This document shows, piece by piece, positions 9,543-64,000 of a stretch of DNA of 64,000 bases. The notes beneath the pieces are model-generated. The model saw only the letters and a program-made list of their open reading frames with translations, made no database searches and was not told the origin of the DNA. The stretch covers positions 331 to 64,330 of the forward strand of contig JAFGJL010000010.1 in the NCBI GenBank assembly GCA_016929115.1, read 5' to 3'. This stretch comes from Candidatus Omnitrophota bacterium (lineage in GTDB: Bacteria > Omnitrophota > Gorgyraeia > 2-01-FULL-45-10). A program made the position numbers and the translations under genes. How positions within the stretch are numbered: position 1 is the first letter of the stretch; each line of letters opens with the position of its first letter.

Positions 9543-9544
9543 AT

Positions 9545-39307: not shown

Positions 39308-39312
39308 CTCTT

Positions 39313-39987
39313 TTATTTCGATTTGAAGAACCGGCCTATTTTTTGGGCTTCCTTGAAATCTTTCTCGCTGTCTATGTCTACCGAAGAGAATACGCCATCC
39401 TGCTTATATAATCTTGCGGCCTTGCCGTACCAAGAATTATGGCCGCGGAAGTGGCCCACGTTGACGGCGTAAAACATGCCGTTCTCGACCGTATATTCAA
39501 AGCCGAAATCATCCGTGCCGCGGCGCTTGCCTTCTGTTTTGAACAAAGGCCTGCTTGACCTCCAAACGAACGGACTGACGCTGAAGCACGAGATAACGGC
39601 GTCCGGGCCGTCTTTTTCTATGATCTTCGCTATAGAACGGTAGTCCTCCTTCGTCCTGAAAGGCGACGTCGGGTTCAGCAACCAGAGATAATCTTTACCG
39701 GACATCCCGTATCGGCGGATCAAAAGCTGCATAAGGTCCTTGATGCATGCCCTCTTCGTCGCAAGCCTCTTCTCCCTAAGGTGTTTCACGGCTCCGGCCG
39801 GTGGCCTGTAGGCAATCCTGTCGGTAGATACTATCACCTTGTCGAAAATGCCGTCCGGTATCGTTGCCAACGTAAAATCGACCAGGCATTTCCCGCCCAA
39901 AAAGGAGCGCCAGTTCTTGTCCCTACACCGGCTCGAATTGTTCTTGGCCGGGACCAGTCCGTAATGTCTTATATTATTTCTCTTCAT
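39313..39987 (-). CDS. Acylneuraminate cytidylyltransferase family (CMP-ulosonic acid synthetase, NeuA/KdsB-like)
   Basis: GLVPAKNNSSRCRDKN...LGGKCLVDFTL, a CTP_transf_3-type N-terminus. Length is 224 aa. Confidence 0.75.
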   Translation of the reverse strand: MKRNNIRHYGLVPAKNNSSRCRDKNWRSFLGGKCLVDFTLATIPDGIFDKVIVSTDRIAYRPPAGAVKHLREKRLATKRACIKDLMQLLIRRYGMSGKDYLWLLNPTSPFRTKEDYRSIAKIIEKDGPDAVISCFSVSPFVWRSSRPLFKTEGKRRGTDDFGFEYTVENGMFYAVNVGHFRGHNSWYGKAARLYKQDGVFSSVDIDSEKDFKEAQKIGRFFKSK

Positions 39988-41320
39988 TTAGGAGTTTCTC
40001 TTTTATGAGTTTACCCACTATCGCCTCATCCTTCAGCCCGAAATCGGCAGGCGAAAACGTTCCGCCTTTTTTGTGCCAGGCCTCCAGTATGAGGGCGATA
40101 TCATCCTTAACGCATAATATCTCGGAGCCAAAACGGTCTATCATGTAAAAACCATCTTCCTTCCTGAACCTCAAGTTGGACGGGACTGAGCATTTCAGGC
40201 CGGAAAGCTTCACTGTCGGCTCTTTTTCGGCCACCCGGCCTTTCGGTTTGACGGGCCACCCTATCCTGAGTATATCAGCCGAAGACATCCTACCGGCATA
40301 GGCCAGCGCGCACAGCCTGCAGCCTCCGTTGCATTCGTCGAACATCTCGCAGGCTTTGCACTCATCCGGGAAATATTCACCGGACCGCCACTTTTTCATG
40401 TTCGCCCATACGCCCTTTAATCCGGCTTCGAATATGTTGCCGTAGCTTTCCTTCTCGTGGACGCAGGCATGGGCGTCGCCATTCGCGTTCAGCGATATCA
40501 TCTTGTTCCCGGCGGGGCAGCCGTGAGAATAAAATTTCGCGTACCTTTTTTTATCGTCATCCCCTACGAGCAGGCACAGCGGGAACGGAACAAGCGTTCC
40601 GACCTGCATCGGGAAATCCTTCTCCACCCTCATCAACTCATCGATTATGCGGCGCGCTTCCTTCTGGTATATAAGGAACTCTTTCTGCTCGTTCACGTCC
40701 TTTGTAATGTGCGGGGTCACACGCGTCCCGAAGAATTTTTTGGCTCCGAGTTCCGAGGCGAGCTTCGCTGTCTCGTAAATATCGCCTATGTTCGTTTCGG
40801 ATATTATCATGTTTACGCTTATACGTATGCCGACCGAGACGGCGTTCTTTATGCCATCGACGATCTTGGCATAGGCGCCCTTCATCGATACGAGGTAATC
40901 GTTCCTCTCTGGGATGTGGGAATTCAGGGATGTCAGGACATGCTCCAGACCGGCCTCTTTGAGTTTCTTGAGCTTCCCGGCCGAATTCGCCACGGCGAGT
41001 GTGGAATTACAGGTAACACTGGCGCCGGCGCCCTTCGCCTTTTTTATGCCCTGCAGGAGCAACGGGCTGTTCAAAAGCGGCTCACCCCCCGTGAAGATCA
41101 CGTGCATGATGCCGTTCTTTATAAGTTCATCCAGTATCCTGTCGAGCTCGGCCTGCGACATGAAAACCGGTTTCGTCTTCTCCGGCCGCCAGAAGTTGTA
41201 ACAATGCCTGCAGCTGAAACAGCATGAAGATGTAAGCTCTATATGCACGGTTGTAGGCAATGAAAGCGTCATGTCGTTTTCCAAAGTGGCTATGGGGGTC
41301 TTGACTATTTTTTTCAGCAT
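39974..41320 (-). CDS. Radical SAM / SPASM-domain protein
   Basis: The CX3CX2C motif is SSCCFSCRHC, and the C-terminal SPASM cysteines are CKACEMFDECNGGCRLC. Length is 448 aa. Confidence 0.75.
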   Translation of the reverse strand: MLKKIVKTPIATLENDMTLSLPTTVHIELTSSCCFSCRHCYNFWRPEKTKPVFMSQAELDRILDELIKNGIMHVIFTGGEPLLNSPLLLQGIKKAKGAGASVTCNSTLAVANSAGKLKKLKEAGLEHVLTSLNSHIPERNDYLVSMKGAYAKIVDGIKNAVSVGIRISVNMIISETNIGDIYETAKLASELGAKKFFGTRVTPHITKDVNEQKEFLIYQKEARRIIDELMRVEKDFPMQVGTLVPFPLCLLVGDDDKKRYAKFYSHGCPAGNKMISLNANGDAHACVHEKESYGNIFEAGLKGVWANMKKWRSGEYFPDECKACEMFDECNGGCRLCALAYAGRMSSADILRIGWPVKPKGRVAEKEPTVKLSGLKCSVPSNLRFRKEDGFYMIDRFGSEILCVKDDIALILEAWHKKGGTFSPADFGLKDEAIVGKLIKEKLLNEEK

Positions 41321-42663
41321 TATTTTTTCATCGCTCCTCTTGCTATTATATAAGCCGTCTTATTGTTAAGGGTGTCGGTCCGGAAAGATTCCTTCCCTGA
41401 AAGGCCGAAAAGATCCACGTTATCGAAGTGGCGTTTCATCATGGCGCTGAGACTGTTATATGTGAGGTTGCTTATATGGAAGGGGTTTTCTGTCTGGCCG
41501 GTTATATCTTCCGAGACCGGGCATGTCAGCCATACCTCGCCGCCGGGCTTCAGCCAGCTCTTGGCCCTCACGAGGAACTTTTCCGGTTCGGCAAGATGCT
41601 CTATCGTCTCGACGCTGATGATCTTGCTGTAAAGCTCTTTCGGGTCGAATGACTCCACCGGCGAGGCATCGAACCGTATATTGGGCCGCCCGTGATTGCG
41701 CCTGGCGTATTCGATCGTCTTCCGGTCGCCGTCCACACCGCGGACCGCAAGCGCCTTTGAAGCCAAAAGTTCACTGCCATAGCCGCTTCCACAAGCTATA
41801 TCAAGGACCGAATCACGCGGTTTCACATGCTTAAGGAAGAACCTGTAGCGCCCGAAATGCCTTTCGTAAGCGGCGGAATCGAAGGCGTTCCTTAATATGC
41901 CCATTTGCGGATCATCGTGTACATAGAAACGCTGGACATTGAACCTTCCTCTCTCGTTCCAGCTCACGCGCTTGTTTTTAAATGAGAGGGCCGCTTCAGC
42001 CATCGCGACATCATACTGGGTCTCTATGTCGACCCCCGACACTTCGTCCATTTCGAAGCCATAGGACTTCCCGGACATAAGCAGGCCGTTTAACCCGTCT
42101 ATCTGCTTAGGCCTGATAAGCCATATGGCGCGATTCAACCTGTAAAGAGGCGGCTGGTCCTGGCGGTTGGTATATTTAAAGGCGCCTTTGACCAGCGGCC
42201 TGGCCCTCTTACTGCCGTCCAGCGATAATCCTCCAAAAGGATGTGTGCGAAGCCGCGTGACACCCGCCACGCTGTCAAAGCCCTTCAGTGACCGGGCGAA
42301 CTTTATCGCGTCTTCGACGTGTTTCGCGGTCCTGAACGGCGCGGTGGGAGAAAGTACCGCTACCATGTCCGGCCCTGGCCGACCCATATGGCTGAGAGCG
42401 TTCTTCACAGCGTCCTTTATAGGTGCGCCATCGCCGGCCAGGGGTTTTGGCCGCCTTATCAGTATCATGCCCCTGTGTCCTTTGTACTTTTTGAGAAGCT
42501 CCGCGTCATCCGTGGACAGATAGACGTTGCGTACTGATGGGGATCCGCAAGCCGCTTCGATCGTATATTCTATGAGAGGCTTATCGCCGATAAGGATCGT
42601 GCATTTCTTATACAACCCCTTACTGCCGCTGCGGGCCAATATGAGTGCGTCTGTCTTCATCAT
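41320..42663 (-). CDS. Bifunctional fusion: acylneuraminate cytidylyltransferase-family domain (N) + class I SAM methyltransferase (C)
   Basis: The N-terminus has ALILARSGSKGLYKKCTILIGDKPLIEY (CTP_transf_3). The C-terminus has VLDIACGSGYGSELL...ISVETIEHL (Methyltransf_11). Length is 447 aa. Confidence 0.75.
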   Translation of the reverse strand: MMKTDALILARSGSKGLYKKCTILIGDKPLIEYTIEAACGSPSVRNVYLSTDDAELLKKYKGHRGMILIRRPKPLAGDGAPIKDAVKNALSHMGRPGPDMVAVLSPTAPFRTAKHVEDAIKFARSLKGFDSVAGVTRLRTHPFGGLSLDGSKRARPLVKGAFKYTNRQDQPPLYRLNRAIWLIRPKQIDGLNGLLMSGKSYGFEMDEVSGVDIETQYDVAMAEAALSFKNKRVSWNERGRFNVQRFYVHDDPQMGILRNAFDSAAYERHFGRYRFFLKHVKPRDSVLDIACGSGYGSELLASKALAVRGVDGDRKTIEYARRNHGRPNIRFDASPVESFDPKELYSKIISVETIEHLAEPEKFLVRAKSWLKPGGEVWLTCPVSEDITGQTENPFHISNLTYNSLSAMMKRHFDNVDLFGLSGKESFRTDTLNNKTAYIIARGAMKK

Positions 42664-50847: not shown

Positions 50848-52284
50848 CTATTCGCTGAGCCCGAGAAGCGCTCCGGCCGCTCTCCAATAATACTTTATAT
50901 CTTCAACAGACCGTATGCTCATGAGGTTAGCCATGATCACCTTCGGGGATGTGTAAAATTTCAGATACGCCTTTTTATAGTATTTTAACAACCTTTCTTT
51001 CCCCAGCTGCGGGTTCACGTATATCGGGTTGGAAAAGTCCGTGGAGGTGTAGTCATCCCAGGCGACGCCTTGCCTCAATCCCCCGTCGATCCTGCATTGC
51101 TCCAGAAGCTCCGTTCCCGGAAAAGGCACCGGAAGGTAGAATATCGCCGTATGCGTCGCGAGCTTCCTGGCAAAATCGATCGTATTCTCCACTTCCCTTG
51201 ACGTCTCGCCGGGGAACCCTAATATATATGAAGCGTATACTTGTATGCCTGCCTTTTTTACCGCGTTGACCGCCCTGACGACCTGTGCCGGGGTCTGGTT
51301 CTTCTTCATAAGTTTAAGCGATGATTCGTTCGCTGACTCAACGCCAAAGACTATCTGCCAGCAACCGGCCTTCTTCATTAGCCGGGCGAGATCTTCATCT
51401 ATCTGGTCCACCCTCGCGTTGCACATCCAGGACAGGTCATACCTTCCTTTAATAAGGCGCTCGCAGAATTCAACAACATATTTCCTTGAAGTCAGAAAAC
51501 TTGAATCTTGGATAAAGAAACCCCTGGCCCTGTGCTCTCGTATCAGGTAATCCATCTCCTCGAATATCTTATCGAGCCCTTTCATCCTCAGTTTCCTGCC
51601 GTGGATCTTGGAGGCGGAGCAGAACGTGCACTGGTACGGGCATCCCCGCGTCGTCAGTAACGGATAGCTCGGGAGCCTTTTATATTGAGTAGAGTGCGGA
51701 AAGTACTTGTCAAGCTTCAGCAGGTCGTATGCCGGCATCGGCAATATATCCAGGTTCGCGATCGGATGGCGCAGCCTTGTCATCTTCACGGCTGTGCCGT
51801 CCCTGTAAGCGATGCCGTTGATCTCTTCCAATTTCATGCCTTTGCCCGATCTCCAGTCGAGTACATCTAAAAAAGTGAGTTCCCCCTCGCCTATCACGAC
51901 CATATCAGCTGCCGGGCACTCCGACATCGTCTTTTCAGGAAGGACCGTAGCATGAACTCCTCCCAGGACGACCAAGGATCCGGGCAATGCTTTGCGCACG
52001 ATATTGGCAGTCTTGAACGTGTAACCAGCTGTGTTCGTAAAACAAGGCATTCCGACGACATCGTAATTCTTGGACTTCAGATGCTTCTCCAAATCGTCGT
52101 CGCGCATGCCCTCCACGCCGGTATCGAATATTTCGACGCTATATCCCTTCTCCCTGATATAGGCGGCTATGGAAAGCATGCCTATAGGAGGCACAAAACC
52201 TCCTCCCCTGTGGAACTTGCCCCACAGGACCCTGAAAGGGACTATCGGATGCAAGAGAAGTATCTTCAAGCCTATTTTTTCCAC
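50848..52284 (-). CDS. Cobalamin-binding (class B) radical SAM enzyme
   Basis: The B12-binding N-terminus is KILLLHP...PIGMLSIAAYI. The CX3CX2C motif is TTRGCPYQCTFC. Length is 478 aa. Confidence 0.8.
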   Translation of the reverse strand: MEKIGLKILLLHPIVPFRVLWGKFHRGGGFVPPIGMLSIAAYIREKGYSVEIFDTGVEGMRDDDLEKHLKSKNYDVVGMPCFTNTAGYTFKTANIVRKALPGSLVVLGGVHATVLPEKTMSECPAADMVVIGEGELTFLDVLDWRSGKGMKLEEINGIAYRDGTAVKMTRLRHPIANLDILPMPAYDLLKLDKYFPHSTQYKRLPSYPLLTTRGCPYQCTFCSASKIHGRKLRMKGLDKIFEEMDYLIREHRARGFFIQDSSFLTSRKYVVEFCERLIKGRYDLSWMCNARVDQIDEDLARLMKKAGCWQIVFGVESANESSLKLMKKNQTPAQVVRAVNAVKKAGIQVYASYILGFPGETSREVENTIDFARKLATHTAIFYLPVPFPGTELLEQCRIDGGLRQGVAWDDYTSTDFSNPIYVNPQLGKERLLKYYKKAYLKFYTSPKVIMANLMSIRSVEDIKYYWRAAGALLGLSE

Positions 52285-54548
52285 ACGCTTTCCAGGTTTT
52301 TGTAAAATAACGGCGCGTTGGACGCGAGAGAATATTCTTTTAAGGCCTTTTCCCTGCCTTTCCTGCCCATCGCGTCACGCAAGGCGGGATCCTCGACCAG
52401 CATCGATAATTTGCGTATCCATTCCTCGACGCTGCCGGCAAGGAAACCGTTTATCCCGTCATCTATTATGTCCAGGTTTGTACCTACGGGAGAAGCCACG
52501 ACGGGAAGCCCGCATGTCATATAAAGTATCGCCTTAAAGCCGCACTTGCCCTTTGTCCAATCGGTATCCGGCATCGGCATTATGCCTATATCAAAAGACC
52601 TGATATCGTCCCTTTCGGTATCCAAAGACCACTCCCTGATTATTATCCTTTCGTGGCTTATCCCATCGGATCTGCTGCCCACAAGGCATATCTTTAGATC
52701 CTTATATTTATCGAGCAGCGACAGGAATGCCCGCTCAAGGTTTTTCAGATAGACCCGGGTGGTATGGCTGCCTATCCAGCCTATAACTACATCATCCTTG
52801 CCGCCCTTGGCGGGACCCGGCCCGTTATATTTATCCGTATCTATGCATGTCGGGATTATGCTGACATTCTTATTTAAAAGCCTGGCGTGGTCTCGCAAAA
52901 ATTCATTCCCGGCTATGACGAGGGAGCTGTGCTTTATTATAAAGTCCGTCTTCCAGGGGCACTTCATCATGCTCATGATCTTAGCCGATCCTTCAGGCGG
53001 AAGATATATCGCGTCATCGAAGTCAAATATGACCTTTTTACCGAATAAGAAGAGCGCGGCCTCGAATAACGGCGGCCCTATGGGGAACATCTCCCTGTGT
53101 ATAAAGACAATGTCGTAAAAGAGCGCTCTTGCCAGGTCGACGAGCCGGCGGCATGAGCAGAAGATGAATAAGAGGAATTTGCCGATCGCGTGGCCTTTTT
53201 CGTACAATATGCCGTAAAAACGGGACGTAAGAAAAGGCCTGACGGCATATCTTATGCCGGCCTTGTCGAGGACAGGCAGGAACTGCTCCACCCTCAGGCG
53301 GACGCTCGCTCCTTCTTTAGGATAAGGGACGATAAATATAACCCTCTTTTTCATCAAGCGGTCATATATCGCGCTGTAAACGGATGAGCCCAGACTCATG
53401 GGAAGATGTTCTGCCGCGACTTTTCCGCACCGCTCACGCATCGATCCGCCTTCTTTCACAAGGTCCTCTAGAACGCCCAGGGCCGCGATGTATGAACCGG
53501 TATCGCAAGAGCCGACCACGACACCCGCCCTGTTTTTAGAGACGAGCTCTTCGACGTCACCCATTCCGGAGTTTATGACTACCGGAAGTCCGGCCGCAAG
53601 ATATTCGGCTATCTTTATAGGGAATGAGTCGAGCCGCTGATTCGGCCGTTTGAACAATATGCCGGCAGTCGCGCCGCGGAGGTATCTCGGGACATCTTCA
53701 TAGCGCGCCTTTACGATCATGACGCCTTCCAGCTTCCTCTCCTTTATCATGCGGCCGAGGCTGCCGTCTTTATCGTCCGTCAGGAACAGGAATTCCGAGC
53801 CTGGACGCGCCTTTTTTACGGCCTCGAAAAAGCTCAGCATCTCAGGCAGCATATACCATCCGGATAATGACCCAAGGTAGACGAGCTTTATCCCGCCGCC
53901 CGATGGCGGATACGCGCCTTGCAGGTTTCCGGCGAAGCGCTCGATATCGACGCAGCATGGAAGGACCGTTATCCGCGGAGGCCTCTTCCTTGAGGATGCC
54001 ATATTTTCCAGCTGCCCCTTATGGACGTTCGTTTCGACTATGACCTCATCCGAATTAAGGACGCACAGCCTTTCGAGGTACGCGAGCGCTTTGTATGTCA
54101 GCGACCCCCGCTTTATCCTCCCGCTCAGGCGGTACCCTTCGGCCAGGGAGCTCTTCATATCGAATATGAACCTGGCGCCGCAAAGTTTTGCGGGAACCAG
54201 CGATATGCATGCGCTCATTATGCCGCGGGCATGGACAATATCTATCTTCTTTGTGATGCATGTCCACAGGGCGACGAGAGAGCCGAGCTTGATATCGAAT
54301 GGTTTTGCGATTATGAAAGGCTTATGGTGGAACTTCAGCCTTATCCATCCTATTCCGGCATCCTTTAATTCTTTTGAAACGTCGGCGCCGGCCGCTGGCT
54401 CTTTCTCAAAAGACATAAGATAGAACTTTATGCCTTGAGCCGATAGTGCGGAGATGTAGGGAAGCGCCTGGCTCTTAACGAGCGGCTCTGTCGCGGCATT
54501 ATAGGATACGAATAAGGCCCTTTTGTCTTTTGGCATCTTTCCGCTCAC
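52272..54548 (-). CDS. Tandem two-domain GT4 glycosyltransferase (GT4-GT4 fusion)
   Basis: Two complete GT-B units. The first has ...IAEYLAAGLPVVINSGMGDVEEL. The second has ...FKAILYMTCGLPVVASPVGTNLDII. Length is 758 aa. The start is GTG at 54548 or ATG at 54536. Confidence 0.75.
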   Translation of the reverse strand: MSGKMPKDKRALFVSYNAATEPLVKSQALPYISALSAQGIKFYLMSFEKEPAAGADVSKELKDAGIGWIRLKFHHKPFIIAKPFDIKLGSLVALWTCITKKIDIVHARGIMSACISLVPAKLCGARFIFDMKSSLAEGYRLSGRIKRGSLTYKALAYLERLCVLNSDEVIVETNVHKGQLENMASSRKRPPRITVLPCCVDIERFAGNLQGAYPPSGGGIKLVYLGSLSGWYMLPEMLSFFEAVKKARPGSEFLFLTDDKDGSLGRMIKERKLEGVMIVKARYEDVPRYLRGATAGILFKRPNQRLDSFPIKIAEYLAAGLPVVINSGMGDVEELVSKNRAGVVVGSCDTGSYIAALGVLEDLVKEGGSMRERCGKVAAEHLPMSLGSSVYSAIYDRLMKKRVIFIVPYPKEGASVRLRVEQFLPVLDKAGIRYAVRPFLTSRFYGILYEKGHAIGKFLLFIFCSCRRLVDLARALFYDIVFIHREMFPIGPPLFEAALFLFGKKVIFDFDDAIYLPPEGSAKIMSMMKCPWKTDFIIKHSSLVIAGNEFLRDHARLLNKNVSIIPTCIDTDKYNGPGPAKGGKDDVVIGWIGSHTTRVYLKNLERAFLSLLDKYKDLKICLVGSRSDGISHERIIIREWSLDTERDDIRSFDIGIMPMPDTDWTKGKCGFKAILYMTCGLPVVASPVGTNLDIIDDGINGFLAGSVEEWIRKLSMLVEDPALRDAMGRKGREKALKEYSLASNAPLFYKNLESVWKK

Positions 54549-55849
54549 TGCTCCTCGGCCTTTTGGCCCTTCTTGGGGCGGCTTGTCTTCGCGAGCCCGT
54601 AGGCCGCGAATATTATATAGACAGGCACGATCATGTCCCTGTGTCTCAGGAGCGTCTCATAGTTGGCTTCCGAAAGCCCGAGAGCCGAAGTGAAGAACAA
54701 CCCGACGGTGATCAGGGCGAGCTTATCCGCCGTCATCTTTTTAAAGGAGAAGCACAATCCCGCTGCGGCAAAGACAACGACCAGATACCATGCGAGCATC
54801 TGCGGCAATATTACGAGCTGCTGGATCTTATTAAACGCAAGAGGCGACGGCCCGAATAAAAATACGCATACGCCCTTCAGATAAGCTATGATCATGTGAA
54901 AGGCGGATACGCCGTCCTGACAGATGCTCCTTCCCGTGGGTATATATGTATAATAACTTTCCGGCAACAGCTTGTATGTAAGGCCTCCGCGATAATTCAG
55001 GATCAAGTGATAATTCAGCATGAACGAGAGCTTTGTCCAGATAAAATCGAACAGCCGGCCGCTCGCCGGATAGAAAGCAAGGAGTGCCCCGGCGAAGGTA
55101 AGCGCCACCCGCCTGTAAGAGAACGCGAACCTGATAAAAAGGTATGCGGCCAGGAAGCCCGCCAGGACGAGCATGGCATTTACCCTCAGCTCAGCGAGCA
55201 GCCATAAAGCGATAGCGGTCACGGCCATAGCTATCAACGGCCCCCTCGCATCATCGGTCTTCTTTATGAACAATACCTGGGATATGACCAGCATGACCAG
55301 CAGGTTTATCAGGGTATCGCGCTGGATACTGGCTGAATAAATAATAAAGGATGGCATGAAGAGCGCTATAGCAAGGGAGATCCGCCCTGTCCGTTCGTCA
55401 AAAGCGCGCCTTGCCACATTATATGTCAAAAACGCCGTAAGAACGCTTGCGCCGCTTATGAAGAATCTTAAAAGGACCGGCGCATACCCGAATACATAAT
55501 AAAATCCTCCTATTATGTATGAAAAGAGGGTTACGCCGTATTCCCTTATAGAAGGCAGTAGGCCGCAGTAATTCACCGGCGTCCCTAAAAGCCCGCCTAT
55601 CAGCGAATAATCGTTGGGGATGCATTGCGCGGGCAGCGCCAAAGTATTGAACCCTTTCAGCACGAGCGCTATGTACCACCCCATTATCGAATACGCCTCT
55701 CCGTCGAACGCGTATATGGGCCTTTTGAGGCCGGCGATGAAGACGTGATAATACGCTGCGCCGATGCAGAACCTTACGATGAGCGCAAGCATAGCGATCT
55801 TGACGCAAAATACGGCCGGTTTCTCCTCGTTAAAAAATTTATTGATCAT
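54545..55849 (-). CDS. Polytopic membrane protein, GT-C-like putative glycosyltransferase/polymerase
   Basis: 434 aa with about 10 or more TM helices and no soluble domain. The context is GT-C/YfhO neighbours. Confidence 0.45.
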   Translation of the reverse strand: MINKFFNEEKPAVFCVKIAMLALIVRFCIGAAYYHVFIAGLKRPIYAFDGEAYSIMGWYIALVLKGFNTLALPAQCIPNDYSLIGGLLGTPVNYCGLLPSIREYGVTLFSYIIGGFYYVFGYAPVLLRFFISGASVLTAFLTYNVARRAFDERTGRISLAIALFMPSFIIYSASIQRDTLINLLVMLVISQVLFIKKTDDARGPLIAMAVTAIALWLLAELRVNAMLVLAGFLAAYLFIRFAFSYRRVALTFAGALLAFYPASGRLFDFIWTKLSFMLNYHLILNYRGGLTYKLLPESYYTYIPTGRSICQDGVSAFHMIIAYLKGVCVFLFGPSPLAFNKIQQLVILPQMLAWYLVVVFAAAGLCFSFKKMTADKLALITVGLFFTSALGLSEANYETLLRHRDMIVPVYIIFAAYGLAKTSRPKKGQKAEEQ

Positions 55850-58353
55850 CGAAGCGGCCTCGCAGCAAAAATGCGCCTGAGCGAAACGGCGAGCATGAGA
55901 GCCATAAGAGCCGCGCAGATGTAGAGCAGCTCGTAAAGGCCTTTCGGCTTAAATATAAAACGCACCCGCTTGTCCCCTGCCCTGACCTGGACGGCCCTGA
56001 ACGCGTAATCCGCCTTAAGGACAGGCCTCTCTTTGCCGTCGACGAACGCCCTCCAGCCAGGAAAATACGTGTCGGAAAGTACCAGGACGCCCTCTTCATC
56101 CCCTTCCGTCTCCACTACAACCTCGTTCGGGCCGTAACTCAAGATGTCCGGATACGATATCCCGGATCCCGCCACCTTTTCCAGCGCAACTCCATGGACG
56201 CGCTCGACGACCGCCTCTCTGGCCGGGTCGAAGGAATCCTCGCGGATCATGCCGTAAGCGGCTTCGCTGTCGGGAGCGACGCGGACGTTGCCGGTAATGA
56301 ACGCGCGCGGCATGGCGCCCGCGTTCCCGTATATCTTTACCTCTTTATCGTATACGAGCTCCCACCTATCGGCCGTTATCTCCTTTTCCGAGACCAGGTA
56401 TTTGACGTTCAGGAACGGCAGGAACTTGCTGTTGTAGTCATTAAAGCGCTCTATGACGATCTCGTCCGGCTCATCGCCCATGATGAACCGGTAATACCAG
56501 CGGGCCTGGCCCAGGTTCTCGTATCCGCGCACATCGTAGAGGCCATAAGGCATGGCGGTGTTCGGCGGATACATGTCCCCGCGCGGCGAGCTTGTCCTCT
56601 CGGAAAAACCTACGATCCTGAACAGGCCGCGGTCTGCGCTGAGGAAACGGGCCGCGTTAGTTACGGGATAGGCGTTCGACGCGCGCGAATACGCCGGAAA
56701 GACGAGGCCGTGCATGAGAAGATCGACCGCAAGCACGATGACGACAACCCCGGTGAAGACGGCCTTGCGCTTCGACACCGCAAGAGCCGCTATCGCGAGG
56801 AATGAGACGAGCGCCAGGCCGAGCGGCACGCGCGCCTCATCGGACGCAAGCAATGAGCCGTAAGCGGATCGCAGCGTCGCCAGATACTGTGTAAAGGCGC
56901 TGAGGCTCTTCAGGCTGTGCGTCCCGTCAAAAAGCGCGCCGGGAAGCGCCTTCTCGGCGGCGGCAAGGAATGATTTAGCCGATACCATATTGACGCGCGA
57001 TAAAATCTCAAGGCAGCCGAATAGAGAGATGAGGAGCGCGAGCGCGATCACCGCTATCTTGACGAATTTTTTTCCGTCATCCCGTAAAAGCCCGTCGCAT
57101 CCCCAGCCAGCCATGACAGCCACCGAAAAGGCGTAGAGCGTCGTGAGCCGGTAATGGTCCACGGACTGGAAATAAGGCATTAATTTTATGACCGGCTTGT
57201 AGACGAACGGCAATGCGAATGACATGAGCGCGATGAGTATCCCGCCGGAAAAGAAGAGATAAAAAAACCTGTCGTGTCTTTTGCGCGCTAAAAAACCCAC
57301 CGCCGCGAGAAAGAGAGTGATGATGCCGACATACGGCGGGCTGAGGCGCATGAAGCCCCTGTTAAAAATATACGTGCCGAACCCGAGGTCCCAGCCGTCG
57401 TACTGTATGCCGTAAAAGAACGGCGAGATATACGAGATGAGCATCTGCGGATAGAGCAGGCTCAGGCCGTAACGGCCGGCTGTCCGCGTGGAATTCGCGA
57501 TATTGATCTTCTGGACGATAAGCTCCGGCAATGCGTATAATACCGCTACCGTTATGATGATGAGCGCGATCGTGGCGTAACGGCCCGATCCTTTTCTATC
57601 TGAAACCGCGGACTGGATAGAACGAAAAACAAGATAGACAAGCGCCATTGCCGAGGCGTAGACGGCAAGTTGTATCTGGCCGGACCAGAAAAAAAGGGCG
57701 AATGATAAGCCGCACCAGAAGGCGGCCGATACGCTTTTCCGCGCAAGCGCCTTTTCTATCAAAAGAAGCGCGAGAGGCAGCCATGAAAAGACGCCCAGGT
57801 AGCTTAAGGTCTGGAACTGTATTACAAATGTCATGTTGAGCATATAGGCGAGCGCCGCCACCAGAGCGCCCGGCCTTCCGGAGCCGATCTGCCGGCTGTA
57901 AAAATACATACCGATACCGGCAACCGCGAACTGGCACATCAAAAATATCCCCCAAGCCTTGACGAAGCTGAAAAGAAAGAAGACGATGTTGAGCGGGTTT
58001 AACGGCGTGGCGAAGTTATTCCCCCATAACGGCGTCCCACACATGATGTAAGGGTTCCATAGCGGCATGATACCCTGCTTCATGAACTGGATAGTGACAA
58101 ATTTAATGGGATACATGTAGAGCACAGGGTCTGTGTCATTATTGAAAGGAGCGGCCGACGCCGCATGGGCTATCCCCTTCCACGGATAGAAGTTATCGAC
58201 GAGCCAGTCGGCGTTGAGCGGCACCATCCCGAGGAACACGAATTTGTAAAAGAATATGGCAAGGGCGGCGAGCAGTATGCCTATCATCAATATATCTTTA
58301 GCCCTTGGACTTAAAAGAATATCTTTGCGATCTTCCATATCCCCTGGTCCCAC
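55846..58353 (-). CDS. YfhO-family (GT-C fold) membrane glycosyltransferase-like protein
   Basis: 835 aa. There is a large N-terminal polytopic domain followed by a C-terminal extracytoplasmic domain of about 250 aa. The architecture and length match YfhO-type proteins that pair with CsbB/GtrB-like GT2. Confidence 0.55.
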   Translation of the reverse strand: MGPGDMEDRKDILLSPRAKDILMIGILLAALAIFFYKFVFLGMVPLNADWLVDNFYPWKGIAHAASAAPFNNDTDPVLYMYPIKFVTIQFMKQGIMPLWNPYIMCGTPLWGNNFATPLNPLNIVFFLFSFVKAWGIFLMCQFAVAGIGMYFYSRQIGSGRPGALVAALAYMLNMTFVIQFQTLSYLGVFSWLPLALLLIEKALARKSVSAAFWCGLSFALFFWSGQIQLAVYASAMALVYLVFRSIQSAVSDRKGSGRYATIALIIITVAVLYALPELIVQKINIANSTRTAGRYGLSLLYPQMLISYISPFFYGIQYDGWDLGFGTYIFNRGFMRLSPPYVGIITLFLAAVGFLARKRHDRFFYLFFSGGILIALMSFALPFVYKPVIKLMPYFQSVDHYRLTTLYAFSVAVMAGWGCDGLLRDDGKKFVKIAVIALALLISLFGCLEILSRVNMVSAKSFLAAAEKALPGALFDGTHSLKSLSAFTQYLATLRSAYGSLLASDEARVPLGLALVSFLAIAALAVSKRKAVFTGVVVIVLAVDLLMHGLVFPAYSRASNAYPVTNAARFLSADRGLFRIVGFSERTSSPRGDMYPPNTAMPYGLYDVRGYENLGQARWYYRFIMGDEPDEIVIERFNDYNSKFLPFLNVKYLVSEKEITADRWELVYDKEVKIYGNAGAMPRAFITGNVRVAPDSEAAYGMIREDSFDPAREAVVERVHGVALEKVAGSGISYPDILSYGPNEVVVETEGDEEGVLVLSDTYFPGWRAFVDGKERPVLKADYAFRAVQVRAGDKRVRFIFKPKGLYELLYICAALMALMLAVSLRRIFAARPLR

Positions 58354-59354
58354 GGCACGCGATGCGATACTCCCTTTGCCTTGCCGAATTTATTTTTATT
58401 ATCGAGATACCATCTGTAATTACGTATGAGCGCATCCTTGTTGGAGTATTTAGGCTTGAATCCTAATACTTTTTCCGCTTTCTCCATGGAGACAAAGGAC
58501 TCGACGTATGCGGTCCCGTAATTCCACTTATAGACCGGAGAAAGTTTCAGATAATGCAACAGCTCAAGAGCCAACAGCGCCGGCTTGACCGGGAAAGATA
58601 CTATCTTCTTGCCGTGCCCGGCGTAATCAAGGACCGCCTGAAAATCCTCGCGGATGGTCCTGAATTCTTTAGCGCCGAGATTGAACGTATCATTAACGGC
58701 ATCCGCATCCTTCGTCATGCAGGCGTATATCGCCTCCGACAGGTCGTAGACGTCCATTAGCTGGAAGAGATTATCGCCTTTTCCCACTATCGGGAAGTTC
58801 TTCCCGGAATCCGCCCAGTCATAAAGGAGCGCGAATATCCCGAGCCTCTCAGGACCTATGAACGACTTCGGCCTTAGGATGGGGACGCACATCCCCTTCT
58901 TCCTGTATTCCCTGCAAAGGCCCTCGGCCATGATCTTCGCCCTGCCGTAGTCGCCGACCTCTTCCCCGCCGAGCGGGTCGGTCTCGTAGATGGGGTGTTT
59001 CTTGGGGATGCCGTAAACGGCTGTCGTGGATATATGGATGAATCTCCGGACCTTATGCCTTAACGCCGCGTCAAGGACGGTGCGCGTGCCTTCGACGTCT
59101 ATGGAATATATGTCTTCCTTCTTGTAGAGCGGCAGCGCAGCTGCCGTATGGACGACCATGTCGATGCCCTCCATGGTTTTATCCATGAGCGCGGCATCCC
59201 TTATGTCGCATTTGATCGCCCTCACCCAGCCTCTTTCAGGGTAATCAAATTCAGCGATATCGACGCATACAATATCCCCGATCCCCTTCTCCATAAGAAG
59301 CCGGATCAGGTTGATCCCCAAAAATCCTGCTCCGCCTGTGACCAGCACCCTCAT
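58311..59354 (-). CDS. NAD-dependent nucleotide-sugar epimerase/dehydratase (extended SDR)
   Basis: MRVLVTGGAGFLGINL and YGRAK (YxxxK). Length is 347 aa. A GGGGGAGG SD lies 7 nt upstream. Confidence 0.8.
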   Translation of the reverse strand: MRVLVTGGAGFLGINLIRLLMEKGIGDIVCVDIAEFDYPERGWVRAIKCDIRDAALMDKTMEGIDMVVHTAAALPLYKKEDIYSIDVEGTRTVLDAALRHKVRRFIHISTTAVYGIPKKHPIYETDPLGGEEVGDYGRAKIMAEGLCREYRKKGMCVPILRPKSFIGPERLGIFALLYDWADSGKNFPIVGKGDNLFQLMDVYDLSEAIYACMTKDADAVNDTFNLGAKEFRTIREDFQAVLDYAGHGKKIVSFPVKPALLALELLHYLKLSPVYKWNYGTAYVESFVSMEKAEKVLGFKPKYSNKDALIRNYRWYLDNKNKFGKAKGVSHRVPWDQGIWKIAKIFF

Positions 59355-59418: not shown

Positions 59419-60189
59419 CTAATCATAATATCCGCTCAGCTTGGCCCTGAAATCATGGATCGTATCGTAGCCGTCAACCTCTGTCCTGCGCAATAGATAC
59501 GGATCGACCGACACGCCGTTCAGGCCCTTGATTGTGGAGCAGCCGCCTGTATACCCGGCCTTCTTTACCAAACTAACGATCCTGCCGTTCAGCTTCCCGT
59601 AAGGATAACTTATGGTCTTCGGATCGATACCGGTCTTGCTCAAGATCTCGTCTTTCGACCCTTTGAGCTGCGCGAGCGCCGCCTCATCATCAAGATCCGA
59701 CAGCGCTATGTGGTCGATCATGTGGGAGCCTATCTCGAATCCCATGCGGCCAAGCCGCGCGACGTCGTCCCAGTCCATGTAAACACGCCTGCTGCCGTCG
59801 GTCCAGGCATTGCGGCTCTTGCCGTCTATATATGATGTTGTGACAAAAAATGTGGCCTTCATGCCCCTGGCTGCGATCGCAGCCGCGACTTCGGTGACAT
59901 TATCCTTATATCCGTCATCAAAGGTCAAAGCTATATCTCTGGTCCTGTCCGCCGCGGCTCCGCCCTTGATGATATCAGAGACGGTCTTTGTGAAATACCC
60001 CCGGGCCGCGATCTCATCAAGTTGCCGCCTGAAATTTTCCGGAGGCACCCTGATGGCAAGTCGATGGTCTGCCGGGTTGCCGATCGAATGGTACATAAGG
60101 ATCCTTACCCCATCCGTTTTCCCGCGAAACGGCAAAAGGGACATGACATACGCCCTGATACGATGTATATTTTTCCGCACCATAAACAC
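59419..60189 (-). CDS. Polysaccharide deacetylase (CE4/NodB homology domain)
   Basis: LTFDDGYKDN (NodB motif 1), GSHMIDH (His motif) and RVYMDWDD. Confidence 0.8.
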   Translation of the reverse strand: MFMVRKNIHRIRAYVMSLLPFRGKTDGVRILMYHSIGNPADHRLAIRVPPENFRRQLDEIAARGYFTKTVSDIIKGGAAADRTRDIALTFDDGYKDNVTEVAAAIAARGMKATFFVTTSYIDGKSRNAWTDGSRRVYMDWDDVARLGRMGFEIGSHMIDHIALSDLDDEAALAQLKGSKDEILSKTGIDPKTISYPYGKLNGRIVSLVKKAGYTGGCSTIKGLNGVSVDPYLLRRTEVDGYDTIHDFRAKLSGYYD

Positions 60190-60192
60190 ACC

Positions 60193-61629
60193 TTAAGCCG
60201 CGAAACGTTTTTTAAATATCATCTTCAGCATGCGAAGCGCCGTCTTCGAGACCTTGAGATAGTTTTGGGAATGCTTTGAGACGCCGGTCGCGCGCTTGTA
60301 ATAAGATATCGGTATCTCGACGATGCGCTTGCGCGCGCGCAGCACCTCTATCATCATCTCCGGCGAGAACTCCGGCCCTGTGCCGGAAAGCCGGTCGCGT
60401 ATCTTCATGTACGTATCGCGCCATATCGCGCGGTACGTGCAGCCGACGTCGGTGAAGCGCGGCTCCTGGCCCCACCAGAGCGCCTCGACGAGCTTGCCGA
60501 CCGCGACGTTGCCCCACCGCAAGGCCCCCTTCATGTTCGCGCCCTGCTCTATCATCTGCCGCGTCGTGCGCGTGCCGATGACCATGTCCGAATCCTTCAG
60601 GTACTCCAGGAACTTGCCGAGGTCCTTGGCGCGGAACGAATGGTCCGCTTCTACGACAATAAGGATGTCGCCCTTCGCGTGGTCAAGGCCGTATTTTATC
60701 GTGTCGCCGTAGCCCTTCAACTTCACCGTCTCGACGCGCGCGCCCGCCTGCTCGGCGACGCGCCTCGTCCTGTCAGCGGATGAATTGTCGACGACAAAGA
60801 CCTCGTCGACCTTGCCTGCGAAGTCCTTCACCACGCAACCTATCGACTCCTCCTCGTTGTAGGCCGGTATGACGACGCTCGTCTTGAAGGAGCTGAAGAA
60901 CGTCGAGCGGTACATGTAATTGGCGTAGTTGTAGTCCTCGACCGAATTGATGTTGTGGTACTCGCCTTCAAGGAAGATGCCGCGCACGGCTTTACCTTCC
61001 CTGACGAGCGTATTGATGGCGTCGGTCAGCTCGACCCTGCCGGACTTTTTCGACGGTTTGGTGCGCTCTATCGCGCCGAATATCTCGGGCGTAAAGATGT
61101 AGGTGCCGATGCCGAGGACCGGGCCATCCGCCTTATTCGGCTTCTCTTCGAGCGAGGCCACCCTGTCGCCCTTGAGTTTCACGGTGTAGTTCTTCGCTAT
61201 CATCTTGAAGTCGTCGGACCTCAACAGGCAGCATGCGGCGGCGAGACCGCCCATGTCCATACCCTTCAGGATAGCGTGGTTCGAATTTATATACACTTCG
61301 TCGCCCAGGATCGTGACGAAATCCTCTTTTATCCTGTCCTTGGCGAGCAATATACCCTTCGCGAGGCCGCTCGCATGGTCATCGCAGTCTATATATTGTA
61401 TCTTGACCCCGAACCGCGATCCGTCCTTCAGGAAAGACTTTATCGTATCGCCCATGTAGCCGGTTATGGCCCAGATATCCTTTATGCCGAGCCTGTCCCT
61501 CATTATCTCGATATTGCGCAGGATGACGGGTTTGCCCGCTATCTCGAGCATCACCTTCGGGATATAGGTAGTCGCCGGATAGGCTCGGACGCCCGCGCCC
61601 GCGGCCGGTATAAGAGCTTTCGTTATCAT
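60193..61629 (-). CDS. Bifunctional fusion: sugar-1-phosphate nucleotidylyltransferase (N) + GT2 polyprenyl-phosphate/DPM-synthase-like glycosyltransferase (C)
   Basis: The N-terminus has KALIPAAGAGVRAYP...PKVMLEIAGKPV (NTP_transferase). The C-terminus has SVVIPAYNEEESI...VVDNSSADRT...VEADHS (GT2). Length is 478 aa. Confidence 0.75.
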   Translation of the reverse strand: MITKALIPAAGAGVRAYPATTYIPKVMLEIAGKPVILRNIEIMRDRLGIKDIWAITGYMGDTIKSFLKDGSRFGVKIQYIDCDDHASGLAKGILLAKDRIKEDFVTILGDEVYINSNHAILKGMDMGGLAAACCLLRSDDFKMIAKNYTVKLKGDRVASLEEKPNKADGPVLGIGTYIFTPEIFGAIERTKPSKKSGRVELTDAINTLVREGKAVRGIFLEGEYHNINSVEDYNYANYMYRSTFFSSFKTSVVIPAYNEEESIGCVVKDFAGKVDEVFVVDNSSADRTRRVAEQAGARVETVKLKGYGDTIKYGLDHAKGDILIVVEADHSFRAKDLGKFLEYLKDSDMVIGTRTTRQMIEQGANMKGALRWGNVAVGKLVEALWWGQEPRFTDVGCTYRAIWRDTYMKIRDRLSGTGPEFSPEMMIEVLRARKRIVEIPISYYKRATGVSKHSQNYLKVSKTALRMLKMIFKKRFAA

Positions 61630-63363
61630 CTATCCACCCACTTTTATGACTGAAAAATAGCGGTCCTCGTAGGCCGTCTTGAAGCCGGCGCCAAGCAGAT
61701 CCTTGATAACATCGTCATCCCTGCCCTTGACCGCCACCACATAATCCACCTTGTACTTCTTCGCGAGCCTCAAGCCGTCCTCGGACAGCATCATTTTATA
61801 CCGCGAGACCAGCGCCTTGCGCTCGGTCTCCATGAACTCCCTGGTCCTGTTCGAGTCGCCGGTGAGGAATATCGCGCCGTCCCATGAATACGGATGGCTG
61901 ACGGCCTCGTCGAGCGTCAGGCCAAAAAGCCTGTAAGCGGCGAGCATCCTGTAACGCGTCTCACCTGCCGATATGAGAGAGAGGCAGAAGAACGGTTCAG
62001 AATAGTAGACATAGCTCTTGGTGTAGATCGGGATGAGCTCTGACAACCGGATATCATTGGGTGACGGCAGTATTACGTCGCCGGGTAACGCGTTGGCGTT
62101 CAACCAGCGGAAAGCCCCGGCCATCTGCTGCAGCTTCAGGTTGTCGTTAAAGTGGTGGCGGTGGTAATTCAGCTGCATTCCGATGCCGTGAACGAGAAGC
62201 GCCGAGAAGAACAGGGCGGGCAGTGCGACCTGGAGCCAGGCCAGGCGCGTTCTCCTGGCTGCGAGGACTTTGGCAAGCGCGGCGACCGACAGGATGACCG
62301 TGATTATGAGCACGAACTTGCCGGTATAGGCGGTCCAGTGGCTCTCTTTGAAAAGTCTTCCGGTCAGTACCTGCTGATTTACCAGCAGGATGACCGCCGC
62401 GAGCATCGCTGCCAGAAACTGGAAGGTCCTCTTCCCCGATACGGCGACGATGGCCCTGCGCGCCAGTAAAAGAAAAGCAAGCGCTGCCACGGTCGCGACC
62501 GGCAAGACCGGCTTGTGCGTGTAAGCGACGTTAAAACGCAGGAGCAGGAGTCCATAGTTCGGGTCCCGCATAGTCTGGATATTCATCATCCAGTACGGTA
62601 CCGACACGATAGCCCCGATCACGGCAATGGCGAACGCCTTCCTGAAAGCGGAAAGATCCTTCTGCGCCAGGAAAACGATGCACAGGACGCCGATAGTCGC
62701 ATATATGTGCATCCAGTAGAACACGCTTACGTAGAAAAGCGAGCCGAGAAAGATCCCGGCAAGCCAGACAAATGTTTTTCTGCCATCATTGAGCGCCTTG
62801 TACAGGAAGATGAGCGCCAGCGTAAAGAATACAAAGTGCATCTGCGGCGTTATCGGCCTGGCGAACCATAGCGGCAGATGGTATCCCGTATTAATGAGCT
62901 TGCCGCCAAAAATGAATATTTTGGAGGCGAGGTGCATGCCGAAGAGCACGCCTGCCGCCATCGCGATCGAACACCACTTCACGCCCGATATTTCATACGA
63001 GAACACGAATACGAGGATAAAGATCAGCGCCGGCATCAGGAAAGTCCATAACATATCAAGCTGCGCCACTGAAAGGACGAGGGCCTTGCCTATAAGCGCC
63101 TCGATAGACTCGCAGATAGTCGGCATGATGACCGGATCGTTGCGGTGTTCGTATATGGCCGGATTGCGGGCCAGAAAGTCACCCCTGTAGATCGCGTTGA
63201 TCCGGCCCAGATAGACCGTCTCGTCGCGGAAACCGATCGGCACTATGCCCTTATACCTGTTGCCGGCCTCTTGCACAAACCGGAGGTCCGGGTAGATATA
63301 TATCAACCCGGCGAAGACCGCCAAGACGAACACTAGCGCTAAGGTTTTTTTCTTTGTATCCAT
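61630..63363 (-). CDS. Polytopic membrane protein with C-terminal soluble domain (GT-C/YfhO-like architecture), function unknown
   Basis: 577 aa. There are about 12 predicted hydrophobic helices and then a hydrophilic tail of about 150 aa. Confidence 0.45.
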   Translation of the reverse strand: MDTKKKTLALVFVLAVFAGLIYIYPDLRFVQEAGNRYKGIVPIGFRDETVYLGRINAIYRGDFLARNPAIYEHRNDPVIMPTICESIEALIGKALVLSVAQLDMLWTFLMPALIFILVFVFSYEISGVKWCSIAMAAGVLFGMHLASKIFIFGGKLINTGYHLPLWFARPITPQMHFVFFTLALIFLYKALNDGRKTFVWLAGIFLGSLFYVSVFYWMHIYATIGVLCIVFLAQKDLSAFRKAFAIAVIGAIVSVPYWMMNIQTMRDPNYGLLLLRFNVAYTHKPVLPVATVAALAFLLLARRAIVAVSGKRTFQFLAAMLAAVILLVNQQVLTGRLFKESHWTAYTGKFVLIITVILSVAALAKVLAARRTRLAWLQVALPALFFSALLVHGIGMQLNYHRHHFNDNLKLQQMAGAFRWLNANALPGDVILPSPNDIRLSELIPIYTKSYVYYSEPFFCLSLISAGETRYRMLAAYRLFGLTLDEAVSHPYSWDGAIFLTGDSNRTREFMETERKALVSRYKMMLSEDGLRLAKKYKVDYVVAVKGRDDDVIKDLLGAGFKTAYEDRYFSVIKVGG

Positions 63364-63364
63364 A

Positions 63365-64000
63365 TTATAATTTCCGGTATCTCTGCACGGTAAGGTCGCC
63401 GAATTTTTTCGAATCGACCGGCGTGTACCGCCCGTTCAGAAAGGAGTTGAACCGCTCGTGGCAGCGGCGTGATTCGAGCTTCTCCGGATAGGAGATAAAG
63501 ACGATCTCTCTGTCGGCTATGCGCCGGACATCCGGGTCTTCGAGCTGGTGCAGGTTGGGCATATCGTAGAAATAATACTTGAACGAACCGCCGAACGACG
63601 GCGATACTATCGCGGTCTCGCGTGTCGCGACCGCCTTGGCATAAGCATGCGCGCCTTTCAGGTCCATCTCCTTGTCCGCGTAAAGGAAGACCAGGCGGCT
63701 TAAGAATACCGCCGACACTGCCGCGAGAAGCAGATATTGCGCCTTCTCGGAAAGTACGGCGCGGCATGCTGCCACCAGGAAGAGAACGAGAAAGACGAAA
63801 CTTGCGATGAAATAATGGCTCATCAGCACTATCTTTACGGCCTGGTGCAGGAATATAGCTATGGCAAAAGGGACTGCCGCAAGGATCAGGAAGAAATAGG
63901 CGTATTTGCGCTCATCCCGCGTAAACTTAGGGCTGCGGATGTATTTGGCAGCTAGCAATGTCGCGGCGAGGGAGGATATAAGCATGCCGGCGAGGGAGGC
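63365..64000 (-). CDS. Membrane protein, C-terminal part (5' end lies beyond the window edge)
   Basis: The ORF runs in frame to the window edge. There are hydrophobic helices then a soluble C-terminus. It is likely another GT-C-type protein. Confidence 0.45.
   Translation of the reverse strand, partial: ASLAGMLISSLAATLLAAKYIRSPKFTRDERKYAYFFLILAAVPFAIAIFLHQAVKIVLMSHYFIASFVFLVLFLVAACRAVLSEKAQYLLLAAVSAVFLSRLVFLYADKEMDLKGAHAYAKAVATRETAIVSPSFGGSFKYYFYDMPNLHQLEDPDVRRIADREIVFISYPEKLESRRCHERFNSFLNGRYTPVDSKKFGDLTVQRYRKL

Follow-up and report, generated by a model that had tools for sequence, protein, structure and literature searches.

A predicted sugar nucleotidylyltransferase–polyprenyl-phosphate glycosyltransferase fusion, translationally coupled to a GT-C-fold protein, in a surface-glycan locus of Candidatus Omnitrophota

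Our study examined 64 000 nt of a Candidatus Omnitrophota bacterium (assembly GCA_016929115.1, contig JAFGJL010000010.1, positions 331 to 64 330), hereafter the window, and revealed a gene in which a sugar-1-phosphate nucleotidylyltransferase (NT) domain is fused to a GT2 glycosyltransferase domain of the polyprenyl-phosphate type. We consider it probable, at roughly 0.65, that the product is a bifunctional, peripherally membrane-bound enzyme that makes a nucleoside diphosphate (NDP)-sugar and moves the sugar to polyprenyl phosphate, to be optionally tailored, flipped across the membrane and used by GT-C glycosyltransferases. This reading is based upon domain identities, catalytic-residue conservation, the GT-C fold of a partner protein, gene coupling, and neighbourhood and fusion statistics, from which we infer the two enzyme activities, the nature of the acceptor as a lipid, the sequence of the steps and any channelling.

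The open reading frame (ORF) lies at 60193..61629 on the minus strand and runs uninterrupted for 478 aa from an ATG start to a TAA stop at 60193–60195. Pfam placed NTP_transferase (PF00483) on aa 4–234, with 74.5 bits against a cut-off of 21.2, and Glycos_transf_2 (PF00535) on aa 251–359, with 71.3 bits against 23.3. Both scores are far above their cut-offs and bear out the claim of the first-pass annotation that the two domains are joined in a single ORF; the strings quoted there were located at aa 5–18 (ALIPAAGAGVRAYP), aa 252–263 (VVIPAYNEEESI) and aa 326–331 (VEADHS). The NT domain, of the RmlA/GalU/GlmU type, spans aa 1–245 (60895..61629, minus strand) and the GT2 domain, with a GT-A fold, spans aa 249–478 (60196..60885, minus strand). 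The AlphaFold2 (AF2) model of the whole protein had a predicted local distance difference test score (pLDDT) of 88.5 and a predicted template modelling score (pTM) of 0.85.

In the pathway that we propose, the NT domain would convert a sugar-1-phosphate and a nucleoside triphosphate (NTP) into an NDP-sugar, and the GT-A domain, which two amphipathic helices would anchor to the cytoplasmic side of the membrane, would transfer the sugar to polyprenyl (undecaprenyl) phosphate, yielding a polyprenyl-P-monosaccharide. The two activities, which are plausibly consecutive, would thereby be co-located on one protein. The lipid-linked sugar might then be tailored, for which the adjacent NodB-family deacetylase and short-chain dehydrogenase/reductase (SDR) are the candidates in the window, and methyltransferases, flavoenzymes and B12-radical-SAM (S-adenosylmethionine) enzymes those in other loci. 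After flipping, it would serve as the donor for GT-C enzymes decorating an envelope glycan, with three candidates in the window, namely a coupled 577-aa protein, a YfhO-family protein and a PMT_2-family protein. The fusion would represent the private activated-sugar supply of this pathway at the membrane.

The fusion sits among closely spaced genes, all of them on the minus strand. Immediately upstream is the gene of the 577-aa polytopic membrane protein (61630..63363, minus strand), whose TAG stop directly precedes the ATG of the fusion, so that the two genes are translationally coupled. This protein has no Pfam match; it has a GT-C fold, with a polytopic GT-C architecture whose first extracytoplasmic loop bears an acidic motif. 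Directly upstream of it, a 206-aa protein with approximately three transmembrane (TM) segments (63365–63985, minus strand) matched no Pfam or NCBIfam model, and might serve as a small accessory protein of the membrane or as a flippase-like subunit. Downstream, the gene of the 256-aa NodB-family polysaccharide deacetylase (59419..60189, minus strand; PF01522, 95.6 bits; PgaB/PdaB/NodB-like by NCBIfam) begins 3 nt past the TAA of the fusion and is a candidate for tailoring of the lipid-linked sugar. It is followed by a 347-aa SDR epimerase/dehydratase (58311..59354, minus strand; PF01370), which is a recurrent partner of the GT2 subfamily, by the 835-aa YfhO-family GT-C glycosyltransferase (55846..58353, minus strand; PF09586, ~12 TM segments) and by the 434-aa PMT_2-family, ArnT/PMT-like GT-C (54545..55849, minus strand; PF13231, 32.4 bits against a cut-off of 26.1; ~10 TM segments).

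The association with GT-C enzymes extends beyond the window. Neighbourhood statistics were drawn from 81 non-duplicate orthologous loci, with a large polytopic protein defined as one of ≥400 aa and ≥5 TM segments. Genes in these loci were called by a crude, GC3-aware ORF selection, as plain longest-ORF calling picked spurious antisense ORFs in GC-rich genomes and missed, for instance, the 515-aa, nine-TM neighbour of the fusion in locus L001. Large polytopic proteins made up 27 % of immediate neighbours of the fusion, 16 % of second neighbours, 10.5 % of third neighbours and 3.4 % of genes from the fourth position outwards. Immediate neighbours differed from genes at least four away with an odds ratio of 10.6 (Fisher P=3.6e-14, which overstates the significance, as the loci are phylogenetically non-independent). 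A large polytopic protein lay within three genes of the fusion in 51 of the 81 loci, and the two largest clusters of such neighbours were PMT_2-type GT-Cs. An Omnitrophota MAG (metagenome-assembled genome; L007) displayed the same order as the window, i.e. GT-C, fusion, SDR, YfhO and PMT_2, with the position of YfhO kept. A single family uniting all adjacent membrane proteins with the 577-aa protein was sought by iterative hidden Markov model search and rejected, as only the L007 protein and the L002/L008 fragments were gained; the membrane partners therefore represent several GT-C families.

The L002/L008 locus (7642–10779, Aminicenantales MAG) retains upstream of the fusion only a 119-aa remnant of the C-terminal domain of the GT-C partner (54 % identity). 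Downstream are a short methyltransferase ORF (101–104 aa) and an SDR that is 86 % identical to that of the window, and a phage-integrase fragment lies close by. The arrangement points to a module that was recently transferred horizontally and has partly decayed.

The GT2 half was also searched exhaustively against 1.84 billion cluster representatives, and 129 representatives fell within the subfamily at E≤1e-30. Beyond NT-fused forms, these included standalone proteins of 224–260 aa with up to 58 % identity, as well as fusions to a PMT_2 GT-C domain in both orders (P0178, P0198, P0209 and P0225) and fusions to SAM methyltransferases, including a triple NT-GT2-methyltransferase protein of 772 aa (P0166). 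Two further fusion proteins (P0218 and P0201) belong to the PMT_2 or methyltransferase set. One standalone GT2 (58 % identity) is encoded 8 bp downstream of a gene whose product has a YfhO-like C-terminus (35 % identity over 80 aa to the window YfhO), and in L088 a GT2-PMT_2 fusion adjoins a GtrA-family gene and an SDR 59 % identical to that of the window. Taken together, the coupled GT-C-fold gene, the neighbourhood enrichment and the GT2-GT-C fusions support the suggestion, made when the gene was first annotated, that the fusion feeds a GT-C decoration system.

The recurrence of the SDR raises an alternative to direct hand-over between the two domains. The NDP-sugar may be released, edited by soluble enzymes such as the adjacent SDR and only then used by the GT2 domain, in which case the fusion would serve co-expression and stoichiometry rather than channelling. 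There is precedent in the Arn pathway, which edits the UDP-sugar ahead of ArnC, and SDR orthologues (59–86 % identity) lie beside the GT2 subfamily in the window, L007, L002 and L088. However, the SDR was found in only ~9 of 81 loci, and so cannot supply a step that the whole family requires, and the pTM of 0.85 would suggest a fixed two-domain arrangement. Moreover, the SDR could equally work on the lipid-linked sugar; DprE2 is an enzyme that acts on such a substrate. We therefore regard an edited intermediate as rather unlikely, while giving it some weight, and prefer consecutive use of the NDP-sugar by the bifunctional enzyme.

The NT half has an RmlA-like Rossmann fold and its catalytic residues line up with the RmlA motifs. 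These are G11-x-G13-x-R15 (nt 61576–61605), K25, D110 and E162-K163-P164 (nt 61138–61146); in an alignment of 65 homologues G11, G13, R15, K25, D110, E162 and K163 were invariant, with P164 conserved in ≥90 %. As the catalytic set is invariant, the NT half is regarded, from its sequence, as an active pyrophosphorylase. Its NTP is most likely UTP or dTTP, judging from its RmlA/GalU/AglF/GlmU-type relatives. An assignment of the sugar and nucleotide from NCBIfam was attempted and rejected. The best models were the archaeal GlmU NT domain (Arch_glmU), AglF and long RmlA (rmlA_long), and the NT half of the window protein fell below all three equivalog cut-offs (125, 124 and 116 bits against 292, 320 and 400). 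In ten orthologues from other phyla the same trio was on top at ~89–135 bits, again all under cut-off, so the three models score alike in every phylum.

Catalytically dead NT paralogues with regulatory roles are well known, and include GalF, GMPPA and eIF2B subunits. By analogy with GalF and GMPPA, the NT domain of the fusion might be non-catalytic and bind an NDP-sugar for regulation or donor delivery, leaving the GT2 domain as the only enzyme. These dead families do appear among the weak matches of the fusion, and standalone GT2 members of the same subfamily, with up to 58 % identity, function without an NT domain. Yet G-x-G-x-R, K25, D110 and E-K-P are invariant across phyla, which is unexpected in a degenerate regulatory domain, and we consider this explanation improbable.

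The first-pass annotation had also assigned the GT2 half to the polyprenyl-phosphate sugar synthase type, and this assignment was supported by whole-domain similarity, by the top glycosyltransferase structural match of the fusion and by retention of the residues that handle the acceptor phosphate. In a single-sequence search the closest solved relatives were PfDPMS (1.9e-12) and ArnC (~2e-8). A profile built from 37 sequences of the GT2 half alone (238 positions) matched PfDPMS (5mlz) at 2.5e-18 over positions 3–221 and ArnC at 5e-12 and 2e-10 over positions 7–215. These two were the only full-length matches through the acceptor half; GpgS, MpgS and other GT2s were matched over the nucleotide-binding half alone, from position 7 to about 90–117.

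Residue conservation in the GT2 half was read from the same 65-homologue alignment and compared with the residue roles described for PfDPMS (PMC5526996). The counterparts of residues handling the acceptor are kept. Arg117, which binds the phosphate of dolichyl phosphate (Dol-P) and corresponds to Arg122 of GtrB, aligns to invariant R354 (60568..60570, minus strand); Glu12, which locks the A-loop, aligns to invariant E259; and the A-loop residues Arg202 and Lys208 align to R446 (invariant) and K452 (≥90 %). The A-loop motif R446-A-T-G449-V-S451-K452-H (60271..60294, minus strand) aligns to R202...K208 of PfDPMS and to R-E-F-G-x-S-K of ArnC, and G449 and S451 are also invariant; the family pattern is R-x-x-G-x-S-K. 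The counterparts of Arg131 and Ser135 of interface helix 1 are ambiguous, K367 being variable and R371 conserved.

In the metal and donor site, by contrast with the acceptor apparatus, several residues have changed and are invariant in their changed form. The signature of DPMS, GtrB and ArnC is D-A-D-L-Q-[HDN], in which the metal is bound by the second Asp and the Gln, with the first Asp as a putative base. The fusion carries E327-A-D329-H-S331-F332 (60634..60651, minus strand) in alignment with 89-DADLQH-94 of PfDPMS, and E327, A328, D329, S331 and F332 are invariant, giving a family motif of E-A-D-x-S-F. Asp91 (metal) is thus retained as D329, whereas Asp89 (sugar contact and putative base), Gln93 (metal) and His94 (sugar O3) are replaced by E327, S331 and F332, respectively. 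Likewise, Asp39 (guanine binding) is replaced by N282 and Lys178 (phosphoester and sugar contact) by E420. As judged from these alignments, the subfamily retains the acceptor-phosphate and A-loop apparatus and alters the residues that contact the sugar and base, as a different donor would require.

Two amphipathic helices are predicted to hold the fusion at the membrane surface. The first, a juxtamembrane helix at aa 369–384 (ALRWGNVAVGKLVEAL; 60478..60525, minus strand), was taken from the AF2 model, with its hydrophobic moment computed, and aligns to the interface helix 1 region of PfDPMS. The second is a cationic C-terminal AF2 helix at aa 457–476 (60202..60261, minus strand), equivalent to interface helix 2, with a net charge of +7 and a hydrophobic moment of 0.61 (18-residue window from aa 457), the second-highest in the protein. 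No TM segment was predicted in the 478-aa fusion, whose C-terminus falls where the TM domain of DPMS, GtrB and ArnC begins. The missing TM domain is no obstacle to function, since a PfDPMS truncation lacking residues 230–352, and so consisting of the catalytic domain and interface helices, was membrane-targeted and fully active (PMC5526996), and type-II DPM1 has no TM domain.

These features bear on whether the acceptor is a lipid at all. A GT2 half resembling glucosyl- or mannosyl-3-phosphoglycerate synthase (GpgS or MpgS) would glycosylate a soluble phosphorylated acceptor, and its product would be a compatible solute or polysaccharide primer rather than a lipid-linked sugar. Matches to GpgS and MpgS exist; however, they end at the DXD motif (profile positions 7–88) and do not extend as whole-domain similarity into the acceptor half. 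The alignments to DPMS and ArnC, by contrast, continue across that half and the A-loop. The cationic amphipathic C-terminal helix suits membrane binding, the GT-C coupling, enrichment and GT2-PMT_2 fusions all suit a lipid-linked product, and phosphatase and glycerate-pathway genes were absent among the recurrent neighbours. A soluble acceptor is therefore highly improbable. A hopanoid reading of the HpnI/HpnK/HpnJ kind, based upon the combination of glycosyltransferase, deacetylase and B12-radical-SAM genes, was also considered and rejected, as the GT2 differs from the HpnI type and matches to HpnA and HpnJ were far below cut-off.

The two-domain architecture is widespread. A search of 5.8 billion proteins returned 1431 matches to the fusion at E≤1e-5, and the best 120 of these were 436–539 aa in length, 59–100 % identical, and carried both Pfam domains in 120 of 120 cases. 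The best 120 derived from Omnitrophota, Aminicenantales, Cyanobacteriota, Desulfobacterota, Acidobacteriota, Planctomycetota, Spirochaetota, Gemmatimonadota, Myxococcota and one Xanthobacteraceae MAG. Furthermore, a pattern-seeded scan found a relative encoded in 258 GTDB species-representative genomes of many phyla. The window does derive from a MAG, on a contig of 69 kb, yet an assembly or sequencing error joining two adjacent genes, for which no support was found, is already refuted by the breadth of these independent occurrences, the best 120 homologues being alike in length and carrying both domains in separate assemblies from many phyla, and by an AF2 model that is confident across the domain junction. 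All 80 loci returned from the GTDB scan were MAGs, which is probably why the family is unstudied. Public annotations of the homologues are generic (‘glycosyltransferase’, ‘sugar phosphate nucleotidyltransferase’ or ‘dTDP-glucose pyrophosphorylase’), and full-text literature searches found no description of the NT-GT2 architecture, although most subscription journals were outside their coverage, so this absence is not proof. Two MAGs labelled Aenigmarchaeota (DPANN archaea; L067 and L086) also carried the fusion at 53–55 % identity, reflecting either inter-domain transfer or mis-binning.

Several observations weigh against the bifunctional reading. The canonical D-A-D-L-Q-[HDN] is replaced by E-A-D-x-S-F, with the metal Asp kept, Glu as the first acid and Ser in place of Gln, and the Lys178 of DPMS that contacts the sugar and phosphoester is aligned to an invariant Glu420; given both changes, donor and metal handling must differ from those of DPMS. 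The match to GtrB was weak (8e-5) and confined to the N-terminal half of the GT2 profile. NCBIfam matches of both halves were far under the equivalog cut-offs, which precludes assignment of the sugar or nucleotide. The adjacent SDR could act between the reactions of the two domains, contrary to direct channelling, and ~37 % of the orthologous loci had no large polytopic protein within three genes.

Regarding the sugar, gene content in independent clades provides a hint. In 8 of 11 Blastocatellia loci a NodB deacetylase, of a different subfamily from that of the window, adjoins the fusion, within an operon (L031 3967–12643, and others) that comprises an LbH hexapeptide acyltransferase, a flavin amine-oxidase-like protein, NodB, the fusion, two PMT_2-type GT-Cs and a methyltransferase. 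In Planctomycetota MAGs (L038 6878–11378; L039, L045, L023, L030, L018 and L033) the genes downstream of the fusion, in the same orientation, encode a NagK-like kinase, MurQ (MurNAc-6-P etherase; 343 bits, over cut-off) and a NagA-like deacetylase. The latter operon links the fusion to amino-sugar or peptidoglycan salvage, rather than to an adjacent GT-C. Because independent clades thus have N-acetyl-amino-sugar enzymes beside the fusion, an N-acetylhexosamine (HexNAc) donor is plausible but tentative. A more ambitious reading is that the E-x-D-x-S-F proteins form a hitherto unrecognised, self-sufficient polyprenyl-phosphate glycosyltransferase (Pren-P GT) subfamily that would convert HexNAc-1-phosphate and NTP directly, at the membrane, to polyprenyl-P-HexNAc, which would be de-N-acetylated or otherwise tailored and installed by GT-C enzymes of several families, some of them lacking a Pfam family. 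Planctomycetota, Acidobacteriota, Omnitrophota and further phyla with few cultured members would then share a widespread, Arn/Lgm-like system that decorates the envelope with amino sugars. We offer this as a speculative possibility, on balance doubtful.

The remainder of the window is taken up by a large locus for surface glycans, with genes for a GT9 heptosyltransferase, WaaL/Wzy_C-like and WecA-like proteins, RmlD, NeuB, cytidylyltransferases and many GT2 and GT4 enzymes. Given these surroundings, the target of decoration is probably lipopolysaccharide (LPS) or O-antigen. Five GT-C-like proteins had been claimed for the locus, of which the two PMT_2 proteins (14834–16093 and 54545–55849), YfhO (55846–58353) and the 577-aa protein (61630–63363) were confirmed but the fifth was not. 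Two further polyprenyl-P sugar synthases, likewise proposed at the outset, were upheld by homology, one a TM-less AglJ/PpgS-like protein (25–723) and the other with two TM helices and a full-length ArnC match of 225 bits (17858–18826).

Six paralogous B12-binding radical-SAM genes, all on the minus strand, are also present (799–2238, 7133–8464, 28297–29835, 34769–36163, 36160–37746 and 50848–52284), three of which were confirmed by Pfam and three assigned via a shared BLAST match pattern. Their best NCBIfam models were BchE and HpnJ-like, far under cut-off. This family occurs near the fusion in 13 orthologous loci and adjoins it in 7, and its members might C-methylate, or carry out ring chemistry on, sugars or lipid-linked sugars. 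In another Omnitrophota MAG (L065 3541–4884) a FAD_binding_4 oxidase, of the family of DprE1 and MurB, overlaps the stop codon of the fusion; oxidase and SDR partners hint at a DprE1/DprE2-like epimerisation of the lipid-linked sugar. Elsewhere in the window, a nonulosonic-acid module (38450–42663, minus strand) encodes NeuB, two CMP-sugar-type cytidylyltransferases, one of which (41320–42663) is fused to a SAM methyltransferase, and a radical-SAM/SPASM protein, with class-III aminotransferases, a formyltransferase and a TylF O-methyltransferase close by. In the mechanical ORF list the Wzy_C/WaaL-like ORF (9545–11161, minus strand) overlaps the WecA-like ORF (10822–11850, minus strand) by 340 nt, and the downstream Wzy_C gene probably begins at a position inside the listed ORF.

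It is well established that a Pren-P GT, a flippase and a GT-C act as a three-component system, and fusions of consecutive enzymes are common, so no principle is overturned by our study; what is new is a widespread, uncharacterised fusion subfamily with a distinctive active-site motif. If the bifunctional reading is correct, one polypeptide turns a sugar-1-phosphate into a lipid-linked monosaccharide donor. This would offer a compact chemo-enzymatic route to polyprenyl-P-sugars, which are laborious to make and are needed for GT-C studies. It would also draw attention to an abundant, as yet unstudied pathway of envelope decoration in phyla for which metagenomes are almost the sole source of knowledge, and the coupled genes would help to assign function to orphan GT-C families, such as that of the 577-aa protein. 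In addition, Pren-P GTs, whose sequence definition is now based upon three solved D-A-D-L-Q enzymes, would come to include the E-A-D-x-S-F active site.

Among known systems, PfDPMS (PDB 5MLZ) is distinguished from the fusion by its D-A-D-L-Q-H motif, in place of E-A-D-x-S-F, and by its lack of the extra N-terminal nucleotidyltransferase domain. The replacement of the guanine-binding Asp39 by Asn282 and of Lys178 by Glu420 indicates that the donor is not GDP-mannose, and as the host is bacterial the acceptor is presumably undecaprenyl-P rather than dolichyl-P. The systems of ArnC, GtrB, CsbB and GacI, with GT-C partners such as ArnT, GtrX and YfhO, follow the same logic of a cytoplasmic Pren-P GT, optional on-lipid tailoring, flipping and GT-C transfer. 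ArnD is a NodB-family deformylase, and the NodB, SDR, PMT_2 and YfhO gene set of the window parallels Arn and CsbB/YfhO. Unlike ArnC, GtrB, CsbB and GacI, however, the fusion has neither C-terminal TM helices nor a β-hairpin tetramerisation element, its DXD motif is non-canonical, and the enzyme that would form the NDP-sugar is built in, whereas those types draw on the cellular UDP-sugar pool. In PpgS (Rv3631)/Rv3779, LgmA/LgmC/LgmB and FlmF2/NaxD/FlmK, the product of a Pren-P-HexNAc synthase is de-N-acetylated and a GT-C enzyme attaches the cationic amino sugar to an envelope glycan. With its deacetylase and GT-C neighbours, the fusion locus resembles these systems and ArnC/ArnD/ArnT in logic, although the NCBIfam match of the fusion to PpgS was weak (51.9 bits against a cut-off of 370). 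To our knowledge, none of the PpgS/Rv3779, Lgm and Flm systems has a fused nucleotidyltransferase. Nucleotidyltransferase fusions do occur in IPCT/DIPPS (PDB 4MND), whose transferase half is a CDP-alcohol phosphotransferase, and in GlmU, where it is an acetyltransferase; in the fusion described here this half is a GT-A glycosyltransferase, with other chemistry and products.

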